A DNA stretch of 64,000 bases from Candidatus Saccharimonadota bacterium (GCA_012965045.1 DTSZ01000001.1:92937-156936); one strand, 5' to 3'. Counted from the first letter of the stretch, positions 8,680 through 47,297 are shown. Translations and numbers: made by a program. Notes: a model not told the origin generated them from the letters alone.

Positions 8680-10179
8680 ATGCAGCATCTTTCTAAGTCA
8701 GATTATTTAAAATTTCGGGTTCATCCAGCTTTCTTGTGGTATCAAAAACATAGTCCGAATGTTTTGCCAAAACCGACCGACAATCAAAAATATACCTTTC
8801 AACAAGGTGACGAATTTGAGCAGTACGCTAAACAACTGTTTGAGGGCGGGGTCGAGGTTGCTGCCGAGCATTATGATTTCAAGGAAGTTTTAAACCAGAC
8901 TAGACAACTACTTTCTGGTGAATGGCGCGTGGTGTTTCAGCCAGGGTTTATGACTGACGACCGCCTGTACTGTAGAAGCGATATCATCGAGAAAACGGAC
9001 ACTGGCTGGATCTTGTATGAAGTAAAGAGTTCCACAAGTGTTAAAACAAGTCACTTGTTTGATTTAGCTTTTCAAAAAAAAGTTCTACAACAACTCGGGC
9101 ATACCGTTACTGCCTGCCGGGTGCTGCATATTAATAAATTTTATAAAAGAAAAAAAGTCATACGACCTGAAAGTTTGGTTGCAATCCGTGACGTAAGCGA
9201 AGAAGTTGCCGAAATAGCCAATAAAGTCGACAAGGAAGTTGCAGAGGCGCAAGCCGTTATCGAGCAGGCGGAGGCCGACGATCACCCGGCTTTTGCTGGA
9301 AATTTGGCCGAATGGATGCCGATATACAATCATATTCATGACGTAGCGGATGATTCAGTTTTAAACCTAACAAGTATTAAACCATCGCAGGTAAAAGAAT
9401 ACTTTTTCGCTGGTATTGAGTCACTGCATGAGCTCGAGCCTAGTTCTGCATTAAATGACAGACAAAAATGGCAAATTAGGGCTACCAAAAATGGCTCGCC
9501 GCTGATTGACGGCGAAAAAGTAAAGACGTTTTTAGATTCTTTGCAGTATCCGTTGTATTTTCTCGATTACGAAACCTCGGCCTACGCAATTCCATTTTAC
9601 GAGGGGGTGAAGCCATATCAACAGATGCCATTTCAGTATTCGCTACATAAACTCGATTCGCCGCAATCACCATTAGAACATTATGAATATCTGCACACCG
9701 AAAAAAACAATCCAGCCCAGCAACTAACGGAGTCATTACTGGGTGATTTGGGTGAAACAGGCACGGTGTTAGCTTGGTTTGATAAGTTCGAAAAATACTG
9801 TAATCGAACGCTTGCAGACTTTGTACCCGAACATAAAGATAGGCTCCATGACATTAATAAACACATGAAAGATTTACGCATACCATTTGCTAACTTCGGA
9901 TATGTAGATGCGCGGTTTGGCGGCAGTACATCGATAAAAAATGTTCTTCCAGTGGTTGTACCTCAGTTAAGTTACAAAAGTCTCGGCATTCAAGAAGGCG
10001 GAGCAGCCCAGCGACTGTGGCAGCAGGTTGTGTTTGATTCTGTTGACGGAGGAGAACAAGTGTTTAACGATCTTATTGAATACTGCAAACTCGATACACT
10101 TGCTATGGTGGAAATTTATAGGGTGTTGCTTGCAGTTGCTGGTTTAGAGTCAGTCAAGACTCAAAGCAGTCTTTTTTAG
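8680..10179 (+). CDS. DUF2779-like protein: N-terminal PD-(D/E)XK nuclease fold plus C-terminal DnaQ-like (DxE) exonuclease-like region
   Basis: The N-terminal half has a D...EVK motif (SDIIEKTDTGWILYEVKSS). The C-terminal half has YFLDYETSAYAIPFY...PFQYSLH, which I recognise from the DUF2779 family. Confidence 0.55.
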   Translation: MQHLSKSDYLKFRVHPAFLWYQKHSPNVLPKPTDNQKYTFQQGDEFEQYAKQLFEGGVEVAAEHYDFKEVLNQTRQLLSGEWRVVFQPGFMTDDRLYCRSDIIEKTDTGWILYEVKSSTSVKTSHLFDLAFQKKVLQQLGHTVTACRVLHINKFYKRKKVIRPESLVAIRDVSEEVAEIANKVDKEVAEAQAVIEQAEADDHPAFAGNLAEWMPIYNHIHDVADDSVLNLTSIKPSQVKEYFFAGIESLHELEPSSALNDRQKWQIRATKNGSPLIDGEKVKTFLDSLQYPLYFLDYETSAYAIPFYEGVKPYQQMPFQYSLHKLDSPQSPLEHYEYLHTEKNNPAQQLTESLLGDLGETGTVLAWFDKFEKYCNRTLADFVPEHKDRLHDINKHMKDLRIPFANFGYVDARFGGSTSIKNVLPVVVPQLSYKSLGIQEGGAAQRLWQQVVFDSVDGGEQVFNDLIEYCKLDTLAMVEIYRVLLAVAGLESVKTQSSLF

Positions 10180-10219
10180 TTTCGTCATTAACGCTTTATT
10201 TTGAGACAATAGGACGGTA

Positions 10220-13200
10220 ATGTCTGATAATTTTACAAATCGGTACAATGGTTTAAACGCCAAGCAAAAGGAGGCTGTAGATTATATCGACGGCGCTCTG
10301 ATGGTATTAGCTGGTCCTGGCACGGGCAAGACAGAGCTTCTATCAATGAGGGCTGCAAACATTCTACAAACAACCGATACGCATCCAAGCTCTATCTTAT
10401 GTCTAACTTTTACTGACAAAGCATCGCTTAATATGCAGCAGCGGCTACAGGAAATCATTGGTTTTACAGCCCGTAATATTCAAGTGCGAACATTTCATAG
10501 TTTTAGCGCAGACGTGATTAACCAAAACCCAGAATATTTTTTTAATCATGCACTCGTCGAACCCGCCGATGACGTGATTCAACTACAAATTATTAATAAT
10601 ATTTTAGAAGAGCTACCATTTCAGAGTCGCCTTACGTCTAAATATGGCGGTAAGTTTACGCAAATTAAGCGAATTATCAGATCAATTGATCAAGCTAAAA
10701 AGGCTGGGCTCACCCCTGAGAAACTACGGTCGGTGGCTGCTCTGAACATTGCGTATATTGACTCTATCAGCGACAGGTTCGATCAAGTTTTTTCTAAGCG
10801 ATTTAATAAGAATACAGCCAATGAGATTCATCAATTTCTAGATGAAATACCGACACTTGAAACAAAAACTCATCCTATTCGCGGCTACGACGAAGTGCTT
10901 CACTCTTCGTTAGCTGCAGTTCTGGTAGAAGCAGATGAAAACAACACAACAAAACCACTTAGTGCGTGGAAGAGTGCTCATAGCCAGGTTGTTGACGGTA
11001 AGCGTGTGCTAAAAGACGTAAAACGAAGCCTGTGGTGGTTAGAGCTAGCTGATGTATACCAGCAGTACCAATCAGCACTTGAAGAGCAAGGGTATTATGA
11101 TTTTTCGGACATGGTTTTAAGTGTTATTACTGAGCTTGAGCAAAATGAGACGCTTCGACACGCAGTTGCAGAGCAATTTAATTATGTAATGGTTGATGAA
11201 TTTCAAGATACAAATGATGCTCAGATGAGGCTTGTGAACCTTATTGTAGAGCTGCAAGCCAATAACCCCAACATAATGGTGGTAGGAGACGACGACCAGG
11301 CGATATATAGGTTTCAGGGGGCAGAAATATCGAATGCTCAGAACTTCCTTGATACCTTTACTCATACGAAGATTATCTCGCTGACTGAAAATTATCGCTC
11401 TAGTAGTAAATTAATTAATTCCAGTCAGACTATCGCAAGCAAAATACTGCATCGACTATCGGCCCAACTTGATATACCTAAAAAAATCGAAGCAAAATTC
11501 AATACTACTACCGATAAAGTCGAACACAAAAGTTATTCAACGCTCGATGTTTCTTACGTTTCTATTGCACAATCAATCGAGCACGACTACAAAGCAGGCT
11601 TGTCGGTGGCTGTTTTAGCGCGCAATCATTCCAGCCTTGCCAAGATAGCTGCCGTGCTTGATGAATGCAATGTGCCACTGCAGTATGACAGGCAGAGCAA
11701 TGTGTTCGAGCTGCCTGGCATTCAGCTCCTTATAAATGTGTTAAAGACTGTTGCATCAATACAAAAAGGCGATATACAACAGTCTACCTATTTACTGCGT
11801 ACCATTTTGCCGAGCGATGTTGTAGGTTTAGATTCTAAGTTTTTATGGTCTTTTAGTATACGTAATCGATATGAAGACTGGGTGAGCGCTGCTCTTGCTA
11901 GTGAAAATGAGGACCTGTTGTCTTTTGTAGAGTGGTTGGTTGAGTTAGCAAAATTAGAAAGAAATACCTCGATTTCAATTTTGCTGGAATATATTTTAGG
12001 CTTGAAGCCCCTTGGTAGCTACGTTTCGCCACTGAAAAAACTTGTTGATTCTGCCGAAGATTTTGAAGCGATGCAATTACTGTCCGGTGTACAAAAACTA
12101 AGGTCTCTCGCGAGTAGCAGCTTAAAATCTAGCAGCAATAATCTGCAGTCATTTGTTGAGCTTTTACGGTCCTATGAAGATTTAGATCTTCAAATTTCAA
12201 ATGAACTAACTTTTTTAAATGGTGATTCATTTGTGAACCTAATGACTGTTCATAAATCTAAAGGGCTGGAGTTCGATAGTGTATTTGTGTTGGACGCTGT
12301 AGATTCTATTTGGAGTCCATCACGGTCTCGAAACAAAACACCAATTAATTTAGAAATGATGCAAGAGTACGGCGAGGATCCTGACGATTATGCTCGCTTA
12401 TTGTACGTTGCAGCAACACGGGCAAAGTCCAGATTAGTATTTGTTAGCTATAAAACCGATGCTGCAGGCAAAGCTCAATTACCAAGCCCACTTCTTGCCG
12501 ACATACCCCCAACAGATATAACTAGTACTAAGCAGGTACTTCACCAGTCCTTGCTACGAGCTAATACATGGCCACGACTCAACCATACTGACGAGAAGCT
12601 CCTACTTAAGCCCCTTCTTACCAACTATGAGCTTTCGGTGACTCATCTTATAAATTTTTTGGATATCGAAAATGGAGGGCCGCAGCTGTTCATTGAACGG
12701 AACCTTTTGCGTCTGCCAGATGTGAAGTCTCCCCACATGGGGTACGGGACGGCAATTCATGCCGCGCTCCGCTTACTGCAATTACAGTTCAATAAGCAGT
12801 CAGTGCAGCTTGATTTAGTGCTTGATGAATTTGATTCTGTACTTGAAACACAACACCTTGAGCAGCCAGCTTTTATAAAATATAGACAAAAGGGTCGTGA
12901 GTTGCTTGAGAAATATGTTAAAAATCCAGATCTGCTTACACTGATTGAAGGCGCACAGCCTGAACGTAGTATAAAAGCCGTAAAAATTGGCGATGCAACT
13001 ATTGGTGGTCAAATCGATAGGCTGGATGAACTACAGTCAGAGCTAGTTGTCGTTGATTATAAGACTGGCTCTCCGTTGGCTCCAGAGCTTGGCGCTAAAA
13101 CAAAAACACACGGTATAAAGGCTTTTAAGCATCGCTTACAACTCATCTTCTATAGCCTGTTACTAGAGGACTACGCAGCTCAGAAACATAAATCAATCAA

Positions 13201-13417
13201 GGGTCGCATGGTATATGTAGAAGCCCAAAGCGATAAAGATTTGGTGCGCGAATACATTCCGAGCCACGTAGAAAAAGATCAGTTAAAGCTGTTAATTGAC
13301 GTAGTGTGGGGCAAGATTCAGGCGTTCGAGTGGCCAGAGGTATCTGGATACGAGGAGTCTTTTGAAGGAATGAAGCAATTCATTACTGATTTAATTGGAG
13401 AAAATCAAATAATATGA
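10220..13417 (+). CDS. UvrD/PcrA-type SF1 helicase fused to a C-terminal PD-(D/E)XK nuclease (AddA/RecB-like)
   Basis: Walker A AGPGTGKT, DEFQDT (motif II), VGDDDQAIYRFQGA, TENYRS, TVHKSKGLEFD and YVAATRAK. The C-terminal nuclease motif is GQIDRLD ... VVVDYKTG. Confidence 0.8.
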   Translation: MSDNFTNRYNGLNAKQKEAVDYIDGALMVLAGPGTGKTELLSMRAANILQTTDTHPSSILCLTFTDKASLNMQQRLQEIIGFTARNIQVRTFHSFSADVINQNPEYFFNHALVEPADDVIQLQIINNILEELPFQSRLTSKYGGKFTQIKRIIRSIDQAKKAGLTPEKLRSVAALNIAYIDSISDRFDQVFSKRFNKNTANEIHQFLDEIPTLETKTHPIRGYDEVLHSSLAAVLVEADENNTTKPLSAWKSAHSQVVDGKRVLKDVKRSLWWLELADVYQQYQSALEEQGYYDFSDMVLSVITELEQNETLRHAVAEQFNYVMVDEFQDTNDAQMRLVNLIVELQANNPNIMVVGDDDQAIYRFQGAEISNAQNFLDTFTHTKIISLTENYRSSSKLINSSQTIASKILHRLSAQLDIPKKIEAKFNTTTDKVEHKSYSTLDVSYVSIAQSIEHDYKAGLSVAVLARNHSSLAKIAAVLDECNVPLQYDRQSNVFELPGIQLLINVLKTVASIQKGDIQQSTYLLRTILPSDVVGLDSKFLWSFSIRNRYEDWVSAALASENEDLLSFVEWLVELAKLERNTSISILLEYILGLKPLGSYVSPLKKLVDSAEDFEAMQLLSGVQKLRSLASSSLKSSSNNLQSFVELLRSYEDLDLQISNELTFLNGDSFVNLMTVHKSKGLEFDSVFVLDAVDSIWSPSRSRNKTPINLEMMQEYGEDPDDYARLLYVAATRAKSRLVFVSYKTDAAGKAQLPSPLLADIPPTDITSTKQVLHQSLLRANTWPRLNHTDEKLLLKPLLTNYELSVTHLINFLDIENGGPQLFIERNLLRLPDVKSPHMGYGTAIHAALRLLQLQFNKQSVQLDLVLDEFDSVLETQHLEQPAFIKYRQKGRELLEKYVKNPDLLTLIEGAQPERSIKAVKIGDATIGGQIDRLDELQSELVVVDYKTGSPLAPELGAKTKTHGIKAFKHRLQLIFYSLLLEDYAAQKHKSIKGRMVYVEAQSDKDLVREYIPSHVEKDQLKLLIDVVWGKIQAFEWPEVSGYEESFEGMKQFITDLIGENQII

Positions 13418-26371: not shown

Positions 26372-28984
26372 TCACCTTAACGTAATCACTTCATTTTCGT
26401 TTAATGATCCATCATTGTTTTGCTGAGCATGTGCTTGTTGAGCTTGTTGTGGTCTGGGCCGTGATTGGTTGGGTTTTGGTTGCGGTTGCCGATTAGTGCG
26501 CTGATTGTTTCTACCCCGCTCTTTTCTATTTTCTCTTCGTACGCGCGTGTTCGCTTTTTGTTTGCTATCACGTTCGAGGGCTTGTTTTTGTATGTACTGC
26601 TCTACGATTTGTCGCGGCGAACCAAATACTTGCCGTGAATTTTCGATTATTACAGGGCTTAAGTCCTGCTCTGTTGGTGGGATATTTAAGGTACTGGCAG
26701 AAAAGGCCTTAGATTTTTCGCCATCTATAGACAATGCAGCTGTAAAGTAACGGTTAGTGGTGTTCACGAGGTCGTTTGCAGTAAAGTAGGGTTCAAAATA
26801 TTTTTCGAGAATACGGCCATCCTCGGCGCCAACCCTAAAGGCTACAATACTACCAACGTTACCAAAAATAGCGTCTCGCACCTCTGGTATCATTTGATTA
26901 ATGTATTGGTTGGCAACGGTTAGTTTTAAGCCGTATTTACGGGCTTCACTTAAGATCACTGAGAACGAATCGGTCGCAAAGTTCTGAAACTCATCCACGT
27001 ATAGGTAGAATGGCCGTCGTTGGTCTTCGGGCATGTCTGCCCTGCTCATAGCGGCTAACTGAATCTTAGTCACCATTAACGCACCGAGTATGGCGGCGTT
27101 GTCTTCACCTACAAGACCACGCGAAAGGTTAACAATTAAGATTCCACCTTGGTCCATAACCTGACGAATATTAAAGCTCGACTGCGGTTGACCAACAATA
27201 TTACGCACCATTGGATTGGCCACAAACGCTCCGACTTTGTTTAGAATTGGTGCCACCGCCTCTGTTTGAAAGCGTGGCTCCCAGCTATTAAATTCGGCAA
27301 CCCAGAAGCTACGAACCACCGGATCTGTAATATGATCGATAACTTCGTCACGAAACCCTTTGTTGGTAAGCATGCGTGTAATGTCTAGCATGGTGGAGTT
27401 AGGGTAATCTAACAGAGCAAGAATGGTGTAGCGCAGAATATATTCTAAGCGTGGACCCCAAGAATCAAACATCCGTTTTAAAACTCCAACTAACTCGGAG
27501 CTAATGTGCCCTTTCAGCTTTGGATCAGTGACTTCCATAGGGTTGAATGCAAGTGGGTGTTCGGTGTCGGCAGGATTGAAATAGACAACCTGCTTGGCCC
27601 GCTCTTGTGGAATGTAGCGCAGCATATTTTGGGCATAGTCTCCATGCGGGTCAACCAATGCAAAGCCTTCGTGGTGATAAATGTCACTAAGGGTGAGCAA
27701 ATTCAATAACCCAGATTTACCAGTGCCGGTTTGACCAATAATGTATAGATGTCGTGCGCGGTCTTTGCGGCGTAGGCCAAATTGCAGGTTGCTGCCCCTA
27801 AAGTTAGTTACACCAAATAGGCTTAGCTCTTCTTCTGAGGCGTTTGTAAGCGTCGGGAGCTGCGAAGGCGGTTCTGCAACGTTCGTCTTTGTCCAAACGA
27901 TATTAGGCGTCTCTACGTTGGTGTGAGGCAAGTGCCAAATACTTGCCAGTTCCTCAGTGTTAAGAGTGAAACCTTTGCCTGCAAAGTAGCGGGCGCGGTA
28001 TTCGCGGACTACACTTGCGTCAAAACTGGACTTTCTTTGCTTGAAGCCATTTAAGTTAGTGCTGTTAAATTGCTTAAACGTGCCAACTAGTGATTGCATG
28101 CGTATTTTGGCGGTGCTTTCGTTATCGCCTAAGTACACTATTCGAATTTTTACCTCATAGCCAAGCTTATTGCTCTTTTCTTCTATAGCCGATATTTGAC
28201 TTCGTTCTCTCTCTGTTAAATCGACTCCGCTACTGGTTGAGCCGGTTGCTTCTGGCGGCTTGAATAAGGCACTAAAGATTTGCAAGAAATAGCCAAGTAC
28301 GCCGGCCCCCACTCCCCTACTCTTTCCACGTTTAATATTAATAATCTCTTTGGCGCCTTTAGTGTGCCATGAATCATTTAGGGGTCGTGCCAGAATCTGC
28401 ACCCATAGTTCTTCGTGTGCACTGTCCAGCTTCGACAAAGTCGCTGTAATAGCAGCTAGTGGATCAACCTCAAAATTTGGGAATGTCCTAATTGGCAGCG
28501 TGTCGCTAGCAATCATGCTAAGTTCGGCAGAGTGAGCCACTGTTTGGTTAAATTCGCGATTTGAGTAGTCATCGACAGCTTCAGATATTTGCACGTCTGG
28601 GTATTGAGCATAGATTTGACCTTCAACAAAACTTTGCAGGTGCTTTGGCGTCCATACGTAGAATTTAATCTGCTGTCCGATTGTCACAATCTCAAAACTT
28701 ATGTGCTCTTGAATTGCTCCTTCACGCAAGATTTCTTTACGGGGACGCAAAATACCATGCAAGCTGGCGAATAGTTGCTCTGCAGACAGTTCGCGTTTTT
28801 CGTTATTGCGAGGAATTTCAAGAATAAGCAACTGGTAATCGGTTTTAAGGGCGAATTTTGTGCGTCGCCAGTTTTGCCACGCTAAATAGCCCAGCACACC
28901 GGCAAGCGGTAACCATATCCATACAGTAGTCACTACAAGTTCAACCAAAGAGAATATAAACTGGACCACCCCGAAATTTGTCAT
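26372..28984 (-). CDS. membrane-anchored P-loop ATPase, VirD4/TraD (type IV coupling protein)-like, FtsK/HerA superfamily
   Basis: 870 aa with two N-terminal TM helices. Walker A is IIGQTGTGKSGLL and Walker B is FYLYVDEFQNF. The C-terminus is a basic Q/R/N-rich tail. Confidence 0.55.
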   Translation of the reverse strand: MTNFGVVQFIFSLVELVVTTVWIWLPLAGVLGYLAWQNWRRTKFALKTDYQLLILEIPRNNEKRELSAEQLFASLHGILRPRKEILREGAIQEHISFEIVTIGQQIKFYVWTPKHLQSFVEGQIYAQYPDVQISEAVDDYSNREFNQTVAHSAELSMIASDTLPIRTFPNFEVDPLAAITATLSKLDSAHEELWVQILARPLNDSWHTKGAKEIINIKRGKSRGVGAGVLGYFLQIFSALFKPPEATGSTSSGVDLTERERSQISAIEEKSNKLGYEVKIRIVYLGDNESTAKIRMQSLVGTFKQFNSTNLNGFKQRKSSFDASVVREYRARYFAGKGFTLNTEELASIWHLPHTNVETPNIVWTKTNVAEPPSQLPTLTNASEEELSLFGVTNFRGSNLQFGLRRKDRARHLYIIGQTGTGKSGLLNLLTLSDIYHHEGFALVDPHGDYAQNMLRYIPQERAKQVVYFNPADTEHPLAFNPMEVTDPKLKGHISSELVGVLKRMFDSWGPRLEYILRYTILALLDYPNSTMLDITRMLTNKGFRDEVIDHITDPVVRSFWVAEFNSWEPRFQTEAVAPILNKVGAFVANPMVRNIVGQPQSSFNIRQVMDQGGILIVNLSRGLVGEDNAAILGALMVTKIQLAAMSRADMPEDQRRPFYLYVDEFQNFATDSFSVILSEARKYGLKLTVANQYINQMIPEVRDAIFGNVGSIVAFRVGAEDGRILEKYFEPYFTANDLVNTTNRYFTAALSIDGEKSKAFSASTLNIPPTEQDLSPVIIENSRQVFGSPRQIVEQYIQKQALERDSKQKANTRVRRENRKERGRNNQRTNRQPQPKPNQSRPRPQQAQQAHAQQNNDGSLNENEVITLR

Positions 28985-29021
28985 AACACTAGTGTACTAC
29001 GATGCTTACGCCTAACAAATT

Positions 29022-29558
29022 TTATGATTGGCATATCTGATTCACTAGGTCATTTGCGATACCGCGAAGCGCCAATATGGCTGCTGCAGACAGCTGCTCG
29101 CCGCAGGGCCCCTTGCCAGAAGATATTCTATCGACAATGCGTTCCAGTCGATGTTCGATTTCCTCGTGGCTACTGAGGTTGATTTCGTCATTGCTGGTTG
29201 CTTGAATCCTAGTGCCCTCAACTACTTCGCTACGTAAACTCTCTGGTACATACGTGTGGCTTGCGGTGGTCGAGCATTGGATTTTCATAGGTGTACCTCG
29301 GACAATCATCGGCCCATCTAGGCAGTATTGGACAGCTGTATCTGCAACGCCAACCGAGCGTATGATCTCGTCTTGCTTTTGTCTTGTCTCGGAGTATGTT
29401 TGGATTATTACAGTAGAAACTGGCGCGTCTGGATTGTCGCTGAGTATTTCCTGCTTTGTATCAGCTATCTCATCCTCAAGTCTATCTATTCTTGATCGAC
29501 AAGTAGACACAACCGGGCAGTATCGTGCACAGTTGTTTTTTGCTGAGACTTCTCCCAT
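29022..29558 (-). CDS. hypothetical cytoplasmic protein (Cys-containing, no recognisable domain)
   Basis: 178 aa with an N-terminal CARYCPVVSTC cluster and no TM. It is packed between the HTH gene and the ATPase gene on the same strand. Confidence 0.4.
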   Translation of the reverse strand: MGEVSAKNNCARYCPVVSTCRSRIDRLEDEIADTKQEILSDNPDAPVSTVIIQTYSETRQKQDEIIRSVGVADTAVQYCLDGPMIVRGTPMKIQCSTTASHTYVPESLRSEVVEGTRIQATSNDEINLSSHEEIEHRLERIVDRISSGKGPCGEQLSAAAILALRGIANDLVNQICQS

Positions 29559-29566
29559 TAATAGGA

Positions 29567-30607
29567 CTATTCTTTATCAGCTAAGTCGTAGGTAGCTTTT
29601 TCTACTCGCTTAAACTGTGGTTTGCTCTGTAGGTTTAGCAGGATAGTTGTTTCTTTAACTTGGCGTTGTTTTAGTACTCGCTTAACAATTTCATCACGGT
29701 GCAGTGGACCACCCTCTTTTTTAAGAATACTTACAATCATGTCGGCCACTGTTCCTTTGCTGTAGCCCCATTCTTTAAGGGCGTAAATTCCCCGACCAAT
29801 CAATACAAAACGGGCATCTTTGATTAACTCATTATGGATTGCTTGGGTTGTTACGTCGCTTCGTCGTAGGTCAGATTCTTGAATAGCGCTTGCAATGTCG
29901 CTAAAGTGCATAGGTTCTTTGTTTTCGCTCAACACAACATAAATTTTGTCACGAATGTTTTTTGGGTTAACTGTTGGCCACTTTTTGAGCCCCCAGTTAC
30001 TCTTAAGACTAGCTAGTTTTTTAGACAGAGTTGCCATAGCGTGGGTGTGGGTGTGGTGCTCGTGGTCAGTGCTTTCGTGGATTTTTTCGATTGTATGTGG
30101 TTCGCCAATGTCTTTAATAGTTTTAACGAGATTTTTCACACGGTCTTTAACGGCTTTTTCATCGTGGTGCTCTTTTATTGCCACACCGTGATAGTAGTCG
30201 TTATTTTCGTTTATAACTGCTAGTTTTGGCGAAAGGCTTGATAAAAAGTGCACATGTGCGTGAGCTCGATCGTCAACTTCACTACTAACCTTAGGGGTAA
30301 GGTGTTCAATTCGAGCTGCTCGTCCCATTTCCTCGAGGTGACGAATAAAATTCTGTTCAATTTCTGGCAGGTGTGGCAATTGGTTCGACATAGACTTAAG
30401 TTTTTGAATTACAGATTTTTCAAGTTGGCGAACTCGTTCACGAGTAATACCTAATAGGTCGCCGATTTGCTCAAGAGTTTCACGACGGTCGTACAGCCCA
30501 AAACGACGACTAATGATTTCTCGCTCACGTTCTTTGTCGATTGTGTTCAAGATATTTTTAGCCGCCTCCTGAATAGTTATAGTTGGTTCAAGAGTGTCTG
30601 TTGCCAT
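29567..30607 (-). CDS. sigma-70 region-4-like HTH protein with His-rich linker and C-terminal HARE-HTH-like repeats
   Basis: The N-terminus RRFGLYDRRETLEQIGDLLGITRERVRQLEKSVIQKLK matches the RpoD region 4.2 signature, but regions 1-3 are absent. The middle holds HAHVH / HEHHTHTH runs. The C-terminal half resembles the N-terminal fold of the RNAP delta subunit. Confidence 0.55.
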   Translation of the reverse strand: MATDTLEPTITIQEAAKNILNTIDKEREREIISRRFGLYDRRETLEQIGDLLGITRERVRQLEKSVIQKLKSMSNQLPHLPEIEQNFIRHLEEMGRAARIEHLTPKVSSEVDDRAHAHVHFLSSLSPKLAVINENNDYYHGVAIKEHHDEKAVKDRVKNLVKTIKDIGEPHTIEKIHESTDHEHHTHTHAMATLSKKLASLKSNWGLKKWPTVNPKNIRDKIYVVLSENKEPMHFSDIASAIQESDLRRSDVTTQAIHNELIKDARFVLIGRGIYALKEWGYSKGTVADMIVSILKKEGGPLHRDEIVKRVLKQRQVKETTILLNLQSKPQFKRVEKATYDLADKE

Positions 30608-30768
30608 AATTTACCTAGTCTATTTTATAATTATTTTGTAAATGTGTCAATCAAGTCTTGTGATTTAAAAAATTATAGCAGCAACTAGAAAATTAACCAA
30701 CAATGTTGGATGAGTAATTAACAACATTACTTTATTTTATAACTGTAAAATATGTGTAAAAGCTACGT

Positions 30769-33069
30769 TTACTTAGTCTTTTTCTTTTTAGTGTTTTTTG
30801 CCTTCTTTTTTGGACCAGCCTTTTTGCGAGCTTCTAGTAGTTCTTTGGCTTTTTCTAAATCAATGTCCGATGGCTCAACGTCTTTAGGTACCTTTGCATT
30901 TGTTTTGCCGTCGGTAATGTACGGACCAAAACGACCATCTTTAATTTGTATGCCGTTTTTAAAGTCTTTTATAAGCTGTTTAGCGAGCTTTTCTTTATGA
31001 GCTGCAATTAATTCATTTGCGGTTGTCTCGTCGATTGTGAACGGGTCATAGTCTTTAATATTTACGTAGGTAGAGCCGTACTTAACATACGGGCCAAACC
31101 GACCTTTGTTTGCAATAATTTCTTCGCCATCGGCTGTTTTTCCAACAGTTCTTGGTAGGTCAAAGCCCTTTAAGGCTTGCTCGAGCGTGACAGTTTCAAG
31201 ATTTGCACCATCTGGTAGCGGTGCAAACTTTGGTTTTTCTTCGTCTTCAGCTTCACCAATTTGTACCATCGGACCATATCGGCCTAATCGAGCAATAACT
31301 GGCTTACCGCTCTTAGGGTCGGTGCCGAGCGTCCGCGCCTGTGAGGCTTCTTTACGGCTGACATCGGCAGCTTTTTCGACGTCATCATGAAACCCTTTGT
31401 AGAAGTTTTTCAGTACAGACTTCCACTGGGCTTTACCTTCGGCTATTTCGTCGAATTCTGCTTCGAGTTTGGCGGTAAAGTCATAGTCCACCACATCGTC
31501 GATGTGCTTGGTTAAAAAGTCAGTAACAATAGTTGCTATTGTTGTCGGCACAAGCTTGTTTTTGTCACCGCCAACTTCTTTTTTAGCCGTTTCAAGCGAT
31601 ACAGTTTTATCAGCAAGCTTTAGTACTGATATTTCGGTCTCCTCACCTATAACATCGCGCTTTTCGACGTATTTTCGGTCTTGGATGGTGCTAATTGTCG
31701 GAGCGTAGGTAGTTGGTCGGCCAATGCCGCGCTCTTCCAACGCTTTAATTAAACTGGCTTCGGTGTAGCGAGCAGGACCACGGCTAAGGGTTTCAGTGCT
31801 TTCAGCTGTTACAAGATCAACGGCTTGGCCTTCTGTTAAGTCTGGTAGTAGAGAGTCGTCTTTGCGGCGACTTTGTACTGCTAGAAAGCCAGGGAATGTC
31901 ACGACTTCGCCTTTTGCAATAAAATCTGGTGCCACATTAGCGGCTCCAAGTACAAGTGTAGTTTTTTCAGTAGCGGCTGGCGCCATTTGGCTGGCAAGTG
32001 CGCGCTCGCGAATAAGTTGGTAGAGCTTGCGTTCGCGTTCGTCTTTGCCTGCTGAGGTAGCGGCTAAATTAGTGGGCCTAATTGCTTCGTGAGCTTCTTG
32101 AGCGCCTTTGGACTTGGTCTTAAAGGTGCGGCGGTGATGATAGTTGCTGCCAAATTCACTGGTAATAATCTTTTCAGCTTGCGTTAAGGCTTGATCACTT
32201 AGATTTAGTGAATCTGTACGCATGTAGGTGATATGACCAGCTTCGTAGAGGCCTTGAGCGAGTCGCATTGTTTGTCGTGGGCTGAAACCAATCAGACTAC
32301 TGGCAGTTTGCTGCAGGCTCGATGTGGTAAACGGCGGACTCGGGTTGCGTTTGCCGGGCTTTTTTTCAACTGATTGTACGGTGTAGTCGGACTGAGCAGC
32401 GGTTTCTAGAAATATCTTTGCTTCTTCTTTTGACGCAAAGTCTTTAGTTTTCGCTTGAATCTCTTCCCCGTCAGCCGCAAATACAGCAGATGTTTTGAAA
32501 CTGGTTTCTGGTTCGTGAGCTTGAATTTCGCGCTCGCGTTCTACAACCAACCGCACGGCAACTGACTGGACTCGACCCGCACTTAAACCGGGCTGGACTT
32601 TACGCCACAGTAGCGGTGAAAGCTCGTAGCCTACTACCCTGTCAAGAACTCGCCGAGCTTGTTGGGCGTCGACGCGGTGGTAGTCGATATCACGCGGGTT
32701 TTTAATGGCGGTTTCAATTGCCGGCTTAGTGATTTCGTGGAACGTGATTCGTTTAGTGCTGGCGTCTTTAAGCTTTAAAGCCTCTTTTAAGTGCCAGGCA
32801 ATCGCCTCTCCTTCACGGTCTTCATCGCTGGCGAGCCATACGGTTTCTGCCTCTTTTACGGCTTTTTTAAGCGCACTGACAGTTTTTTTCTTATCAGCAT
32901 TAACTTCATAGGTTGGTTCAAAATCATTTTCGATATCAACAGACATGCCCTTTTTTGGTAAATCACGAATATGCCCAAAGCTGGACAATACTTTGTAATC
33001 TTTACCGAGATATTTCTCGATAGTTTTAGCCTTGGCTGGTGATTCTACTATAACGAGGTTCTTTGACAT
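30769..33069 (-). CDS. topA: DNA topoisomerase I (type IA) with Zn-less C-terminal repeats and Lys-rich tail
   Basis: TOPRIM (VIVESPAKAKTI, DEDREGEAIAWH) and the active-site Tyr context GHITYMRTDS. The C-terminus has GRFGPY/GRYGP repeats and a KKKAKNTKKKKTK tail. Confidence 0.95.
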   Translation of the reverse strand: MSKNLVIVESPAKAKTIEKYLGKDYKVLSSFGHIRDLPKKGMSVDIENDFEPTYEVNADKKKTVSALKKAVKEAETVWLASDEDREGEAIAWHLKEALKLKDASTKRITFHEITKPAIETAIKNPRDIDYHRVDAQQARRVLDRVVGYELSPLLWRKVQPGLSAGRVQSVAVRLVVEREREIQAHEPETSFKTSAVFAADGEEIQAKTKDFASKEEAKIFLETAAQSDYTVQSVEKKPGKRNPSPPFTTSSLQQTASSLIGFSPRQTMRLAQGLYEAGHITYMRTDSLNLSDQALTQAEKIITSEFGSNYHHRRTFKTKSKGAQEAHEAIRPTNLAATSAGKDERERKLYQLIRERALASQMAPAATEKTTLVLGAANVAPDFIAKGEVVTFPGFLAVQSRRKDDSLLPDLTEGQAVDLVTAESTETLSRGPARYTEASLIKALEERGIGRPTTYAPTISTIQDRKYVEKRDVIGEETEISVLKLADKTVSLETAKKEVGGDKNKLVPTTIATIVTDFLTKHIDDVVDYDFTAKLEAEFDEIAEGKAQWKSVLKNFYKGFHDDVEKAADVSRKEASQARTLGTDPKSGKPVIARLGRYGPMVQIGEAEDEEKPKFAPLPDGANLETVTLEQALKGFDLPRTVGKTADGEEIIANKGRFGPYVKYGSTYVNIKDYDPFTIDETTANELIAAHKEKLAKQLIKDFKNGIQIKDGRFGPYITDGKTNAKVPKDVEPSDIDLEKAKELLEARKKAGPKKKAKNTKKKKTK

Positions 33070-33193: not shown

Positions 33194-33658
33194 ATGGATT
33201 ACAACAGCGATTATTTACGCAGATCCTGCACGGATCTTTTTGAAGGCCTTATTTTTGGCGATGAGGTAATGGTGTCTAGTAATAGCAATGCTTTAGTGGA
33301 CGCTGGACTCCCTTTGGCGGAATATACCGGCATAGAAGAAGAATCCTTTGATGAAGACCATTTTCGGTTTGCTATTTTGTGTGCGGCATCAAGCAAATTA
33401 ATTTCAGACTGGTCGTATTTTAGATTTGTTGCGAATAGTCAGGGCTTTTCTGACGACTGGTTACGGTTTTTAAAGCGGCCGGAACATTACTTAGTAGATA
33501 ATACCGATTTAGACGACAAACAGATTCAAGAAATTACAGACTATATTAAAGATACCTTCCGTGAACAGTTCCCCGATCAGCATAATCGGTCGATCGAAGC
33601 TCTAAAGCGCTTTGGTCGTTCAATATCAAGTATTTTTGAGAAAACTAGCGCCGAATAG
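33194..33658 (+). CDS. hypothetical protein
   Basis: 154-aa ORF with no recognised motif. It is divergent from topA and its 3' end overlaps the dprA 3' end by 14 nt. Confidence 0.35.
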   Translation: MDYNSDYLRRSCTDLFEGLIFGDEVMVSSNSNALVDAGLPLAEYTGIEEESFDEDHFRFAILCAASSKLISDWSYFRFVANSQGFSDDWLRFLKRPEHYLVDNTDLDDKQIQEITDYIKDTFREQFPDQHNRSIEALKRFGRSISSIFEKTSAE

Positions 33659-34514
33659 CCCACTGATTGTTACCGAGCGGTCGAATATGACCTTCGATTT
33701 CTAGCATGGTAAGTGCTTGCTGAAAGACAGCGGTTTCTAGGTTAGCCCGTTGCTGTAGTTCATGCGCGTCGTGGCTCACCCCGTCTTTAATTAACTGGTA
33801 TATGACCGTTTGCGTGTCATCTGTGAAAATTGGCAAGCGAATGTCTTCGGTCGGATCGCTATGGTCAAGGTTTAAAACCTCCAGAATATCTATCGCTTTT
33901 GTAACTGGATGTGCGCCAGCCTTAATGAGCTGATTTGTTCCGTAGCTCAGTGGTGCCGTTATCGACCCGGGCACAGCAAATACTTCTTTTCCTTGCTCTA
34001 GAGCATGACGAGCGGTGTTTAATGAGCCGCTCCGTTGGGCGGCTTCCACAACGACCACAGCTCGGCTTAATCCAGAAATAATACGGTTTCGTTCTAGAAA
34101 CTGATGACCTAAATGTGGTGTGCCATTGCTATATTCGCTTACTAAAGCGCCTCCAGAAGTGACTATTGTGATTGCTAACTGGCGATGAGCAGGTGGTGAA
34201 ATAATATCCACACCGCCACCAAGCACCGCTACGGTGTAGCCATTGCTTTCTAGGGCGATTTTGTGCGCCCATGAGTCTATGCCAAAGGCAAGACCACTAA
34301 CAATGCCTACACCGTGACGCACAAGTTCTTTCGTAATAAGTTCTGTTGCTTGTTTACCGTAATTTGTAGCCTTCCTGCTACCAACAACAGCAACTAATGG
34401 CATTTTTGATTTTAAATTGCCGTGTACATACAGTTTGCTAACAGGCTGTGGAATATGTTTGAGGCTGCTCGGAAAGCTTTCTGAGTTGGCTGAAATTGAA
34501 GTTATTGTGCTCAT
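33645..34514 (-). CDS. dprA: DNA-processing protein DprA (Smf)
   Basis: Rossmann-like DprA core with VVGSRKAT, SGLAFGIDSWAHK and VVVEAAQRSGSL, plus a C-terminal winged-helix-like extension. Confidence 0.9.
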   Translation of the reverse strand: MSTITSISANSESFPSSLKHIPQPVSKLYVHGNLKSKMPLVAVVGSRKATNYGKQATELITKELVRHGVGIVSGLAFGIDSWAHKIALESNGYTVAVLGGGVDIISPPAHRQLAITIVTSGGALVSEYSNGTPHLGHQFLERNRIISGLSRAVVVVEAAQRSGSLNTARHALEQGKEVFAVPGSITAPLSYGTNQLIKAGAHPVTKAIDILEVLNLDHSDPTEDIRLPIFTDDTQTVIYQLIKDGVSHDAHELQQRANLETAVFQQALTMLEIEGHIRPLGNNQWAIRR

Positions 34515-45701: not shown

Positions 45702-47297
45702 CTATAGTTCCATCGCATCCGAATATTCAGGTAGCAGCTCCTTCTCATCTTCTACTTTTTTGATCACTAGTTTGGTTACATGCCAGTTCGGCAAATGCCC
45801 CAAATGTACCGTATTACAATGTAGTCCATCATAGTTAAATTGCTCTGTAATGAACGACGAAGAAAACTTACTCTCTTCTTCGGGATAGAAATATGCCACT
45901 GATTCTTCCATCTGGCTGTCGGTTTCGTTAAACAACGATCGAAATGGTTTTTCGGTAGAAAATTCAGTGGGCGCATATAGATCGTTATTGCTAAGAGAAA
46001 GGTCGGTGCGATCCATTTGAAATAGCGGCATATTTAAATATGCAGTAATTAATGCGTCTTCTAACAGCTCATTATCGCCTATGATGTGCTCTTTGATTTC
46101 TTTGAAACTGTGTCCTTTTTCATCGTAGCGCAAGTCTTGAACATTAAATTTTTTTAACCGAAACGAAATAGCCTTTTCTACACACAGCATTTCTAGTGCT
46201 CTTGTCGAAACATCTAGCTGCCTGGCTTGTTGGTCTAGGTAGGTAAGATAATCCTCTTCGTATTTTTTTAATTCTATCGTGTGTGTGGTATCAGGGTTTA
46301 AATACTTTTCAAGGTATGCGTTGTCTATATAGCGGTACTCTGTCTGCAACACTTTAATTGTTAAATCCAAGTCAAGTAAAAGAACCACGCCGATATCTGC
46401 ATAGCGCTCGAAGTACATCTTCATTTTGAAGATTTTTAGTATGTCCTTCGCTTCCAGTCGGTCAATATCATCAAAAACTACATAGAGCTTTTTTGGACTG
46501 CTAGTACTTGTTTTTTGTGCGGCATTAAATGCAACGGGATTAGAGTGTAGATTTTTTTTAAACAGTTCAATGCCATATTTGTGTTTAATAAAGCTATTCA
46601 AGTAGTCTTCTATATCATCGTGTTCATCTACGCCAGTCACGTCTTTCATTTCTTTAAATTCTTGGAGCAGCAGCCTTATATAGTCGTCAAAATCATTCAA
46701 AATCACAGGACAGATATACAGTAGTTTTGGTTTTTCTGTTAATTTTTCGAGTCCTTCGACTGTATATATAAGCTTTTCGAACTTATTTTTTTCTTCGTCT
46801 TTTGCCCACAGCAGGTTATTCACAATAGCCAATAGAGTAGTTTTGCCAGTGCGGTGCTTGCCATCTATCAAAATAGTCGACTTGGATTGCGGACTATCTG
46901 TATTTGTTAGCTCATCAAGTAGTGCCTTTAACGCTCGATAGTGCATGAAGCTATTACGGTATTTTTCTAGAAAGTTGCTTGCTTCCTTATCTCCAACTTC
47001 ATAAATAGAAAAAATATTGGTATTGGCTGTAGTGCTCCAATCATTTTTTTTAGCTCTCTTTCTTGCAGTATTATAGGAGGAATCTGATTTTGTAAAATAA
47101 AATAAAACAGCCGCGGATGAAATCACTACTAGCACGGTAGCTATGCAGTATGGCAAACTATTAAAATTTATAGCTGGAAAAAAGGAACTAATTACACTAA
47201 GTGATTGAAGTACCTTGGCCAACAGAAAAGTCGATACACCACTGATAATTGCAATGTAGAGGATGATGCGGCCAAGGAATTTTAATTTAAACTTCAT
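45702..47297 (-). CDS. KAP-family P-loop NTPase with N-terminal TM helices
   Basis: Walker A DGKHRTGKTTLL and the KAP-type Walker B LYVVFDDIDRL. Two N-terminal TM segments are present. Confidence 0.7.
   Translation of the reverse strand: MKFKLKFLGRIILYIAIISGVSTFLLAKVLQSLSVISSFFPAINFNSLPYCIATVLVVISSAAVLFYFTKSDSSYNTARKRAKKNDWSTTANTNIFSIYEVGDKEASNFLEKYRNSFMHYRALKALLDELTNTDSPQSKSTILIDGKHRTGKTTLLAIVNNLLWAKDEEKNKFEKLIYTVEGLEKLTEKPKLLYICPVILNDFDDYIRLLLQEFKEMKDVTGVDEHDDIEDYLNSFIKHKYGIELFKKNLHSNPVAFNAAQKTSTSSPKKLYVVFDDIDRLEAKDILKIFKMKMYFERYADIGVVLLLDLDLTIKVLQTEYRYIDNAYLEKYLNPDTTHTIELKKYEEDYLTYLDQQARQLDVSTRALEMLCVEKAISFRLKKFNVQDLRYDEKGHSFKEIKEHIIGDNELLEDALITAYLNMPLFQMDRTDLSLSNNDLYAPTEFSTEKPFRSLFNETDSQMEESVAYFYPEEESKFSSSFITEQFNYDGLHCNTVHLGHLPNWHVTKLVIKKVEDEKELLPEYSDAMEL

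Follow-up and report, generated by a model that had tools for sequence, protein, structure and literature searches.

In a 64,000-nucleotide stretch of DNA from a Candidatus Saccharimonadota bacterium (GCA_012965045.1, DTSZ01000001.1:92937-156936), hereafter the window, whose positions are used for all coordinates, three open reading frames (ORFs) lie close together on the minus strand downstream of topA, as an earlier reading made from the sequence alone (the sequence-only reading) had described. In the direction of transcription, these are a gene for a protein of 346 amino acids (aa) that joins a sigma-70 region 4 to HARE-HTH domains (29567..30607; termed sig4HARE below), a gene for a 178-aa protein (29022..29558) and a gene for an 870-aa P-loop ATPase of the VirB4/VirD4 superfamily and the DUF8128 family, which is predicted to be membrane-anchored (26372..28984). 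The intergenic gaps are 8 bp between the first and second and 37 bp between the second and third. Upstream lie topA (30769..33069) and dprA (33645..34514), whose orthologues carry the Pfam domains Toprim/Topoisom_bac and DNA_processg_A, respectively. The subject of this analysis is the ATPase and its helix-turn-helix (HTH) neighbour sig4HARE, which appear to have been kept together as a pair.

Two surveys bear on this pairing. A forward survey, which took one genome per species, found the ATPase in more than 590 species, from which 80 loci, all of Saccharibacteria type, were kept; 77 of them had enough upstream sequence to judge pairing. sig4HARE is directly upstream of the ATPase and on the same strand in 74 of these 77 Saccharimonadia species; the gap is 131 bp or less in 64 loci, and nine hold an insert of 0.5-2.8 kb. 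In hundreds of species the chromosomal location of the pair is fixed, with topA on one side and the division and cell wall (dcw) cluster on the other. Since the Saccharimonadia neighbourhood is kept whole, as der-pth-dprA-topA-sig4HARE-ATPase and a convergent ftsQ-murG-ftsW-mraY-ftsI cluster, adjacency alone is weak evidence of coupling in this group. The reverse survey was seeded with a cross-class sig4HARE alignment and yielded 80 metagenome loci, 62 of them informative. The ATPase is encoded downstream on the same strand in 55 of the 62, immediately so in 48; many of these ATPases are just 21-30% identical to that of the window, and many of the loci lack topA and dprA within 6 kb. The pair adjoins ligA in Kazan and secDF in two other lineages, and inserts in the slot between the two genes part them by about 3.3 kb at most and never invert them, single exceptions aside. 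Because the pair is kept in distant lineages that lack topA and dprA, the conserved unit, as judged from these comparisons, is the pair itself, a two-gene operon found across much of Patescibacteria, with topA and dprA not included. The sequence-only reading had called the ATPase co-operonic with the HTH gene; both surveys bear this out and show the two genes to be syntenic in related genomes. Its association of the unit with topA and dprA did not hold: that synteny is at the level of the lineage, a hairpin and a separate promoter intervene in the window, and distant pairs do without the two genes. An apparent natural fusion of sig4HARE with the ATPase in one locus (L007) was an artefact of a run of N.

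The promoter architecture also sets the pair apart from topA. A consensus scan of the window found a sigma-70-type promoter upstream of sig4HARE (TTGACA-17-TAAAAT, 11/12 matches; 30622..30650, minus strand), and a terminator-like hairpin, weakly supported as a consensus-scan call only, lies between the topA stop and this promoter (30697..30709, minus strand). In the 150 bp that precede the sig4HARE orthologue, 66 of 72 species have a promoter with at least 10/12 matches, as against 2 of 72 control windows, and a comparable promoter precedes the ATPase in only 2 of 77 species. With a promoter upstream of sig4HARE and none upstream of the ATPase, it is most likely, on this sequence evidence, that the two genes share one transcript, which starts at their own strong promoter and not at that of topA. 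In Saccharimonadia the promoter upstream of sig4HARE is often a perfect 12/12 match (TTGACA-17-TATAAT). Autoregulation of sig4HARE at its own promoter is conceivable, as the protein keeps an intact -35-recognition helix.

The 178-aa protein encoded between the pair has no family match in Pfam or NCBIfam, and searches for homologues returned only the protein itself among 5.8e9 proteins and none in 80-87 related loci. Its ORF has a codon log-odds of 0.047, which is above all shadow frames and below typical genes, and the nearest relative (ATPase 70% identical) carries an unrelated 137-aa ORF in the same slot. It is thus probably a real, lineage-specific gene, young or foreign, in a variable slot, and there is no conserved trio; the three-gene unit of the sequence-only reading gives way to a singleton ORFan (a gene with no detected relatives) in a slot that in relatives is empty or holds unrelated cargo. 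The spacer at 28985-29566 acts like an insertion hotspot, with slots in ten further loci (L005, L011, L023, L024, L046, L054, L065, L070, L078 and L088). The cargo differs by lineage and includes an ABC-F ATPase with a HIT-like gene, a 322-aa gene, ORFans and, in another lineage, two paralogous 360-376-aa genes on the opposite strand.

The ATPase is predicted to consist of four parts, all encoded on the minus strand. An N-terminal hydrophobic hairpin (aa 3-37; 28874..28978) is a putative membrane anchor; AlphaFold2 (AF2) places helices at residues 3-19 and 21-47, followed by a basic stretch, and hydropathy marks segments at aa 2-32. The hairpin is followed by the DUF8128 domain (PF26449, precomputed annotation; aa 48-385; 27830..28843), an alpha/beta domain in the AF2 model whose fold resembles the N-terminal domain of VirB4. 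The third part is a RecA-like NTPase of TrwB/VirD4 type (aa 386-790; 26615..27829), called from Pfam, AF2, Foldseek and profile searches, with a helical insertion at aa 488-611; the model also shows a long C-terminal helix. Its Walker A motif GQTGTGKS (27713..27736) is invariant in 60 homologues, as are residues D664 and E665 of the Walker B motif YLYVDEF (26987..27007) in homologues. The fourth part is a basic, Q-rich tail (26375..26518), which is predicted to be disordered (predicted local distance difference test, pLDDT, <50) and ends in ...E.VI.LR, a terminal motif present in 100 of 120 Saccharimonadia homologues. The mean pLDDT of the model is 82.7. These features agree with the P-loop and DEF boxes of coupling-protein type, the two membrane helices and the basic tail that the sequence-only reading had recognized. 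The long domain it placed between the membrane helices and the P-loop is likewise real, measures about 340 aa and corresponds to DUF8128. We found no paper under the name 'DUF8128'.

At the level of sequence, the similarities of the ATPase point to the coupling proteins of type IV secretion systems (T4SS). Residues 402-720 match DUF87, TrwB_AAD_bind, T4SS-DNA_transf and TraG-D_C, each slightly above its Pfam gathering score (for example, PF10412 at 31.5 vs 20.5, PF02534 at 25.3 vs 20.1 and PF12696 at 23.0 vs 22). A profile of the whole ATPase against the PDB is closest to TrwB (8.5e-5) and then DotL (0.012). VirB4 was not found in these profile searches, there is no match to PF03135, and AAA_10 scores 13.6 bits against a cut-off of 27.5. 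The NCBIfam equivalogs for TraD and the VirD4-like CD1115 reach only 28-40 bits against cut-offs of 250-650. FtsK_SpoIIIE (PF01580) remains at 15.9 bits against a cut-off of 24 and covers the P-loop only. The HerA model PF01935 does exceed its cut-off (33.9 vs 23.2), but HerA structures rank under VirB4 and TrwB in Foldseek, and no NurA-like gene was seen near the ATPase among the related loci.

At the level of fold, VirB4 comes first. Foldseek searches of the PDB using the whole ATPase model place R388 TrwK/VirB4 at the top, with an E-value of 5e-12 over about 900 columns at a template modelling (TM) score of just ~0.26, followed by Cag-beta, TrwB (target-normalised TM 0.56-0.62), DotL and HerA. 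When the N-domain is modelled alone (pLDDT 65), TrwK/VirB4 accounts for all of the top 13 matches (E 7e-6 to 1.5e-4, TM 0.40-0.46), and by sequence this domain has no match to PDB chains. Among solved structures, Foldseek thus matches the N-domain only to VirB4, and the two proteins appear to share the order of an N-terminal domain and a C-terminal NTPase. In VirB3-VirB4 fusions, an N-terminal hydrophobic hairpin stands ahead of the N-domain, as it does in the ATPase. The differences from VirB4 are that no sequence-level similarity is seen, that the ATPase gene does not lie in a T4SS cluster, and that Patescibacteria have a separate bona fide VirB4. Taking profiles and predicted models together, the ATPase is assigned to a distinct family in the VirB4/VirD4 branch of the HerA-FtsK superfamily, with what looks like a VirB4-like layout by fold and a VirD4-like NTPase by sequence, to which a membrane anchor is added. 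The label 'VirD4/TraD-like' given in the sequence-only reading therefore fits the NTPase but not the N-domain. The ATPase does not fall into the FtsK/SpoIIIE clade, a placement that would have refuted that reading, given the sub-threshold PF01580 score and the separate, essential FtsK kept by relatives. On the same two grounds, we rejected the ATPase as a substitute for FtsK; the FtsK of the relative is complete.

The family comprises 6,578 clusters at 50% identity (E<=1e-30) and extends beyond Saccharimonadia to Kazan, Howlettbacteria, Dojkabacteria and others. Some members (P0225, P0228, P0232, P0233, P0251 and P0254) reach 1,700-2,000 aa; the DUF8128-ATPase takes up their first 800 residues, and about 1,000 residues are fused to it C-terminally. 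One Patescibacterial contig (L090, 1894-7946) encodes an 817-aa DUF8128-only protein, a 212-aa protein and a 981-aa full ATPase in tandem, and has no sigma-region-4/HARE-HTH gene.

Relatives of the ATPase are also encoded by phages. The PHROGs family phrog_5156, which has no assigned function, matches aa 92-810 with an E-value of 5e-85 (hmmscan), and tblastn identifies gp156 of Bacillus phage G (25.7% identity over aa 56-774, E 8e-56) together with TP-84 gp48, D6E, vB_BceS-M2 and others. Foldseek searches of BFVD confirm a shared fold (phage G at 2e-44; phage JL with a TM of 0.61). The phrog_5156 proteins have the full N-domain and NTPase architecture but differ from the ATPase in lacking the membrane hairpin and a sigma-region-4/HARE-HTH partner, and their identity to it is only 19-26%. 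The gene maps to the early region in TP-84 (L092, 6767-9031) and vB_BceS-M2 (L093, 6866-9028), where genes for recombination and replication come downstream of it; in phage G, two paralogues, gp155 and gp156, stand side by side.

The partner of the ATPase, sig4HARE, matches Sigma70_r4 at aa 26-71 (2.7e-13) and HARE-HTH (PF05066) in two stretches (1.9e-12), so that the N-terminal RpoD region-4 HTH and the HARE-HTH-like repeats described in the sequence-only reading are confirmed by Pfam. Taking Pfam and NCBIfam together, the sigma-70 region 4, with subregions 4.1 and 4.2 and the motif ITRERVRQ, spans aa 11-76 (30380..30577, minus strand). Sigma regions 1-3 were not found with either database, as the sequence-only reading had also maintained, and sigma equivalogs align at aa 10-76 only, far under their cut-offs. 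A HARE-HTH winged helix follows at aa 220-280 (29768..29950, minus strand), where TIGR04567, the model of the RNA polymerase (RNAP) delta subunit, scores 43.7 bits against a cut-off of 42. A second HARE-HTH-like winged helix lies at aa 283-340 (29588..29761, minus strand), from the second Pfam stretch and weak matches to DUF3320 and WH_PARP12; in an orthologue, aa 286-345 are called 'winged' by DPAM. In the cross-class alignment, TRERVRQ is invariant and the HARE-HTH cores are kept among proteins of just 31-59% mutual identity. The His-rich linkers (HAHVH, HHDEK and HEHHTHTH; aa 110-200) are shared by close relatives only, and their columns are unconserved across classes. Thus, region 4 is complete at the N-terminus and includes the TRERxRQ recognition helix, but without regions 1.2, 2 and 3 the protein is not a sigma factor. 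Likewise, one winged helix resembles the N-domain of RNAP delta (RpoE of Bacillota), but the protein ends in ...KATYDLADKE without an acidic C-terminal tail and is hence not delta. We predict a DNA- or RNAP-binding protein composed of a complete sigma-70 region 4 and delta-type winged helices, a domain combination that appears specific to Patescibacteria. A split sigma factor, in which an RpoD without region 4 is complemented in trans, was considered and rejected, since the RpoD of the relative has regions 1.2, 2, 3 and 4.

Orthologues of both proteins have been included in earlier genome-wide work. Quinonero-Coronel et al. 2025 (PMC12102498) counted 5,713 VirD4-type coupling protein (T4CP) homologues, spread over 2,918 Patescibacteria genomes, and VirB4 itself in 2,417 of 3,035 genomes; just 148 of the T4CP homologues lie near virB4. 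They describe the homologue of S. epibionticum ML1 as non-essential and far from virB4, and raise exaptation as a possibility. The transposon sequencing (Tn-seq) of Wang et al. 2023 (PMC10633639) classes SEML1_0293 (TrwB_AAD_bind, aa 402-719) as non-essential (NE/NE/NE), with reads falling from 5817 through 2940 to 1372, a drop of about 4-fold from T0 to T2. SEML1_0294 (Sigma70_r4 + HARE-HTH) is classed as essential (ES/ES/ES), with input insertions going from 24 to 1. Both genes are listed there as 'core family' and 'Patescibacteria enriched', and topA is essential and dprA non-essential. Transposon fitness, which the sequence-only reading had named as a check, thus separates a dispensable ATPase from an essential HTH protein. 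The orphan T4CP homologues of Patescibacteria and their fitness data are therefore already known, and the synteny of 0293-0294-topA-dprA together with the Pfam coordinates places them in the same family as the ATPase. In the literature searchable here, those papers do not mention the sig4HARE pairing, the VirB4-like N-domain or the phage homologues. New in this analysis are the depth to which the sig4HARE pairing is conserved and the strong promoter kept upstream of the pair, along with the variable slot, the phage homologues and an N-domain of VirB4-like fold. In the S. epibionticum genome, FtsK is essential and complete in its domains, and no region is missing from RpoD. Two further arrangements were seen in it: yebC adjoins comEC, and in strain ML1 a type II CRISPR-Cas9 (SEML1_0289-0291), which has no counterpart in the window, is located two genes downstream of the ATPase orthologue.

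The module is real and partly known; most likely, it consists of a motor that handles DNA and of an HTH protein as its partner. A fuller reading is the one we favour, though tentatively and at somewhat short of even confidence: a membrane DNA motor with an HTH recruitment partner, which is accessory to the cell and not obligatorily tied to a T4SS. The ATPase would form a hexameric ring at the membrane and act on DNA, either by translocation or by docking a nucleoprotein substrate. This is suggested by DNA-handling neighbours in three independent settings (topA/dprA/ligA; yebC-ruvCAB, with or without an integrase; and phage recombination/replication modules), by a partner with four HTH-type domains, and by the basic tail. 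The HTH protein, by analogy to TraM-TraD or TrwA-TrwB, is probably the DNA-recognition and recruitment (or regulatory) partner of the ATPase. A further, essential role that does not depend on the ATPase is expected of it, with transcription as the simplest candidate, as SEML1_0294 is essential while the downstream SEML1_0293 is dispensable. The motor would serve some accessory process on DNA that the cell can do without, for example its uptake, its transfer or a step linked to recombination, and would not be bound to the essential chromosomal T4SS.

Several points weigh against this proposal. That the ATPase handles DNA rather than protein, and that the two proteins are in contact, is what we infer, and VirB4/VirD4 relatives also power pilus assembly and effector export. 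The pair is discordant in essentiality, and co-transcription could mean mere co-regulation. The orthology of SEML1_0293 and SEML1_0294 was itself deduced from gene order and from the agreement of domain coordinates, and not by sequence alignment. A Dojkabacteria-type clade (L081, L084, L085 and L089) has the ATPase without sig4HARE and with a membrane LytR_C-like gene upstream; here yebC-ruvC(-ruvA-ruvB) and a gene for a tyrosine recombinase (integrase) come after the ATPase. Where the ATPase is unlinked (L081, L084, L089 and L090), searches of the upstream sequence for diverged relatives of the HTH gene found none, even with all HMMER filters off. Lastly, the C-terminal motif of the ATPase shows no co-variation with the presence of a linked HTH gene; a similar alternating hydrophobic ending occurs in unlinked clades.

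The ATPase could instead be the coupling protein of the chromosomal, MPF-FATA-like T4SS of Patescibacteria, encoded apart from virB4 and delivering DNA or protein, with the HTH protein as a substrate-processing accessory; we consider this possible but rather unlikely. Besides the T4CP Pfam families above gathering scores and the best PDB sequence matches to TrwB and DotL, the ATPase shares with VirD4, TrwB, TraD and DotL a membrane hairpin at the N-terminus and a RecA-like NTPase into which a helical segment is inserted, with TraD a disordered C-terminal tail bearing a conserved terminal motif, and with the T4CPs a small DNA-binding protein encoded alongside, as TraM or TrwA are. The essential T4SS cluster of S. 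epibionticum (SEML1_0006-0019) is without recognisable coupling and relaxase proteins (PMC10633639), T4CP genes distant from virB4 are not unusual, the gene is listed in the literature as a T4CP homologue, and a review lists a VirD4-like component. The possibility foreseen in the sequence-only reading, that complete T4SS loci elsewhere account for the ATPase, is accordingly realized in part only: Saccharibacteria do have a chromosomal T4SS elsewhere, one that lacks a coupling protein of its own. Against such a role, the T4SS genes of S. epibionticum are essential but the ATPase orthologue is not, so that in the one organism tested the two are not co-essential, and T4CP-like genes are present in at least 501 more genomes than VirB4; this mismatch and this wider distribution count against the ATPase as an obligatory coupling protein. 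Patescibacteria have almost no relaxases (PMC12102498), and neither the window nor about 170 related loci showed relaxase or mating pair formation (Mpf; VirB4) genes near the ATPase. No T4SS component is encoded by the ten largest other ORFs of the window, its small ORFs having been screened non-exhaustively; on both counts the sequence-only reading was right that T4SS genes are missing nearby. The 340-aa domain between anchor and NTPase is foreign to T4CPs, the TraD and VirD4 equivalogs remain far under their cut-offs, the partner is a sigma-region-4/HARE-HTH protein where those of T4CPs are ribbon-helix-helix proteins, and homologues without the anchor occur in phages that have no T4SS. A facultative coupling-protein role is possible.

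It is also conceivable, if on balance improbable, that the two proteins are not mechanistically coupled at all, the HTH protein being a general essential transcription factor or RNAP accessory and the ATPase being merely co-transcribed from the strong promoter of the HTH gene for unrelated work, such as protein or pilin export or envelope biogenesis. The difference in essentiality, the invariant sigma-4 recognition helix and the delta-like winged helix would fit this view, as would the single bona fide sigma factor of the cultured relative, which makes a second global regulator plausible, and the clade whose ATPase has no HTH gene and stands beside an envelope gene of LytR_C type. However, adjacency and order hold at 21-30% ATPase identity and with changing flanks, which would be unusual without functional coupling, and the slot inserts, single exceptions aside, leave the order and, within their limit of size, the proximity of the two genes intact.

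A narrower version of the membrane DNA motor, to which we give a low probability, is a DNA-import module specific to Patescibacteria, in line with the link to DNA uptake proposed in the sequence-only reading. The ATPase would be the missing cytoplasmic motor of ComEC/ComFC/DprA transformation, or of a T4SS-independent acquisition of host DNA, with sig4HARE handing over incoming or target DNA. It is suggested by the annotation of the cultured relative, which includes ComEC, ComFC and DprA and leaves ComFA and ComEA unannotated. If true, it would account for the fact that epibiotic growth does not require the ATPase, just as it does not require comEC, comF or dprA.

A mobile-element remnant or an anti-phage defence module, with a HerA-type ATPase and a sigma-like, MzaA-type partner, is very improbable and disfavoured: phage homologues do exist and PADLOC gives weak matches (mad8 at 7e-16 and HerA at 1e-8 for the ATPase, MzaA at 1.6e-7 for the HTH protein), but these are limited to generic P-loop and sigma-4 segments, the pair is core in the sense of Wang et al. 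and fixed in position as described, no integrase, repeats or composition shift were seen at the locus, and the HTH gene is essential.

These findings matter in several respects. Much of bacterial diversity belongs to Patescibacteria, and the literature describes the role of their T4SS-related machinery as unknown. What has been a widespread 'orphan coupling protein' is, on this analysis, a distinct family with a VirB4-like N-domain, a VirD4-like NTPase and an anchor, locked in an operon with an essential protein of sigma-70 region 4 and delta-like winged helices. SEML1_0293 and SEML1_0294 are genetically tractable targets for the study of DNA handling in reduced cells and of a possible unusual RNAP accessory factor. 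The phage homologues, moreover, connect a gene of the Patescibacterial core with one that Bacillus and Geobacillus phages carry in their early regions and that is as yet uncharacterised.

Some other genes of the window may be mentioned. Between topA and dprA, the opposite strand has an ORF of 154 aa (33194-33658, plus strand), and a relative (L088) has a 181-aa gene without a Pfam match at the topA-dprA position. A 531-aa ORF, also without a Pfam match, is found at 45702-47297 on the minus strand. At 8680-13417 on the plus strand, a gene for a DUF2779 protein is followed by one for a 1,065-aa UvrD-helicase/PD-(D/E)XK nuclease (AddA-like), a further DNA-processing pair.

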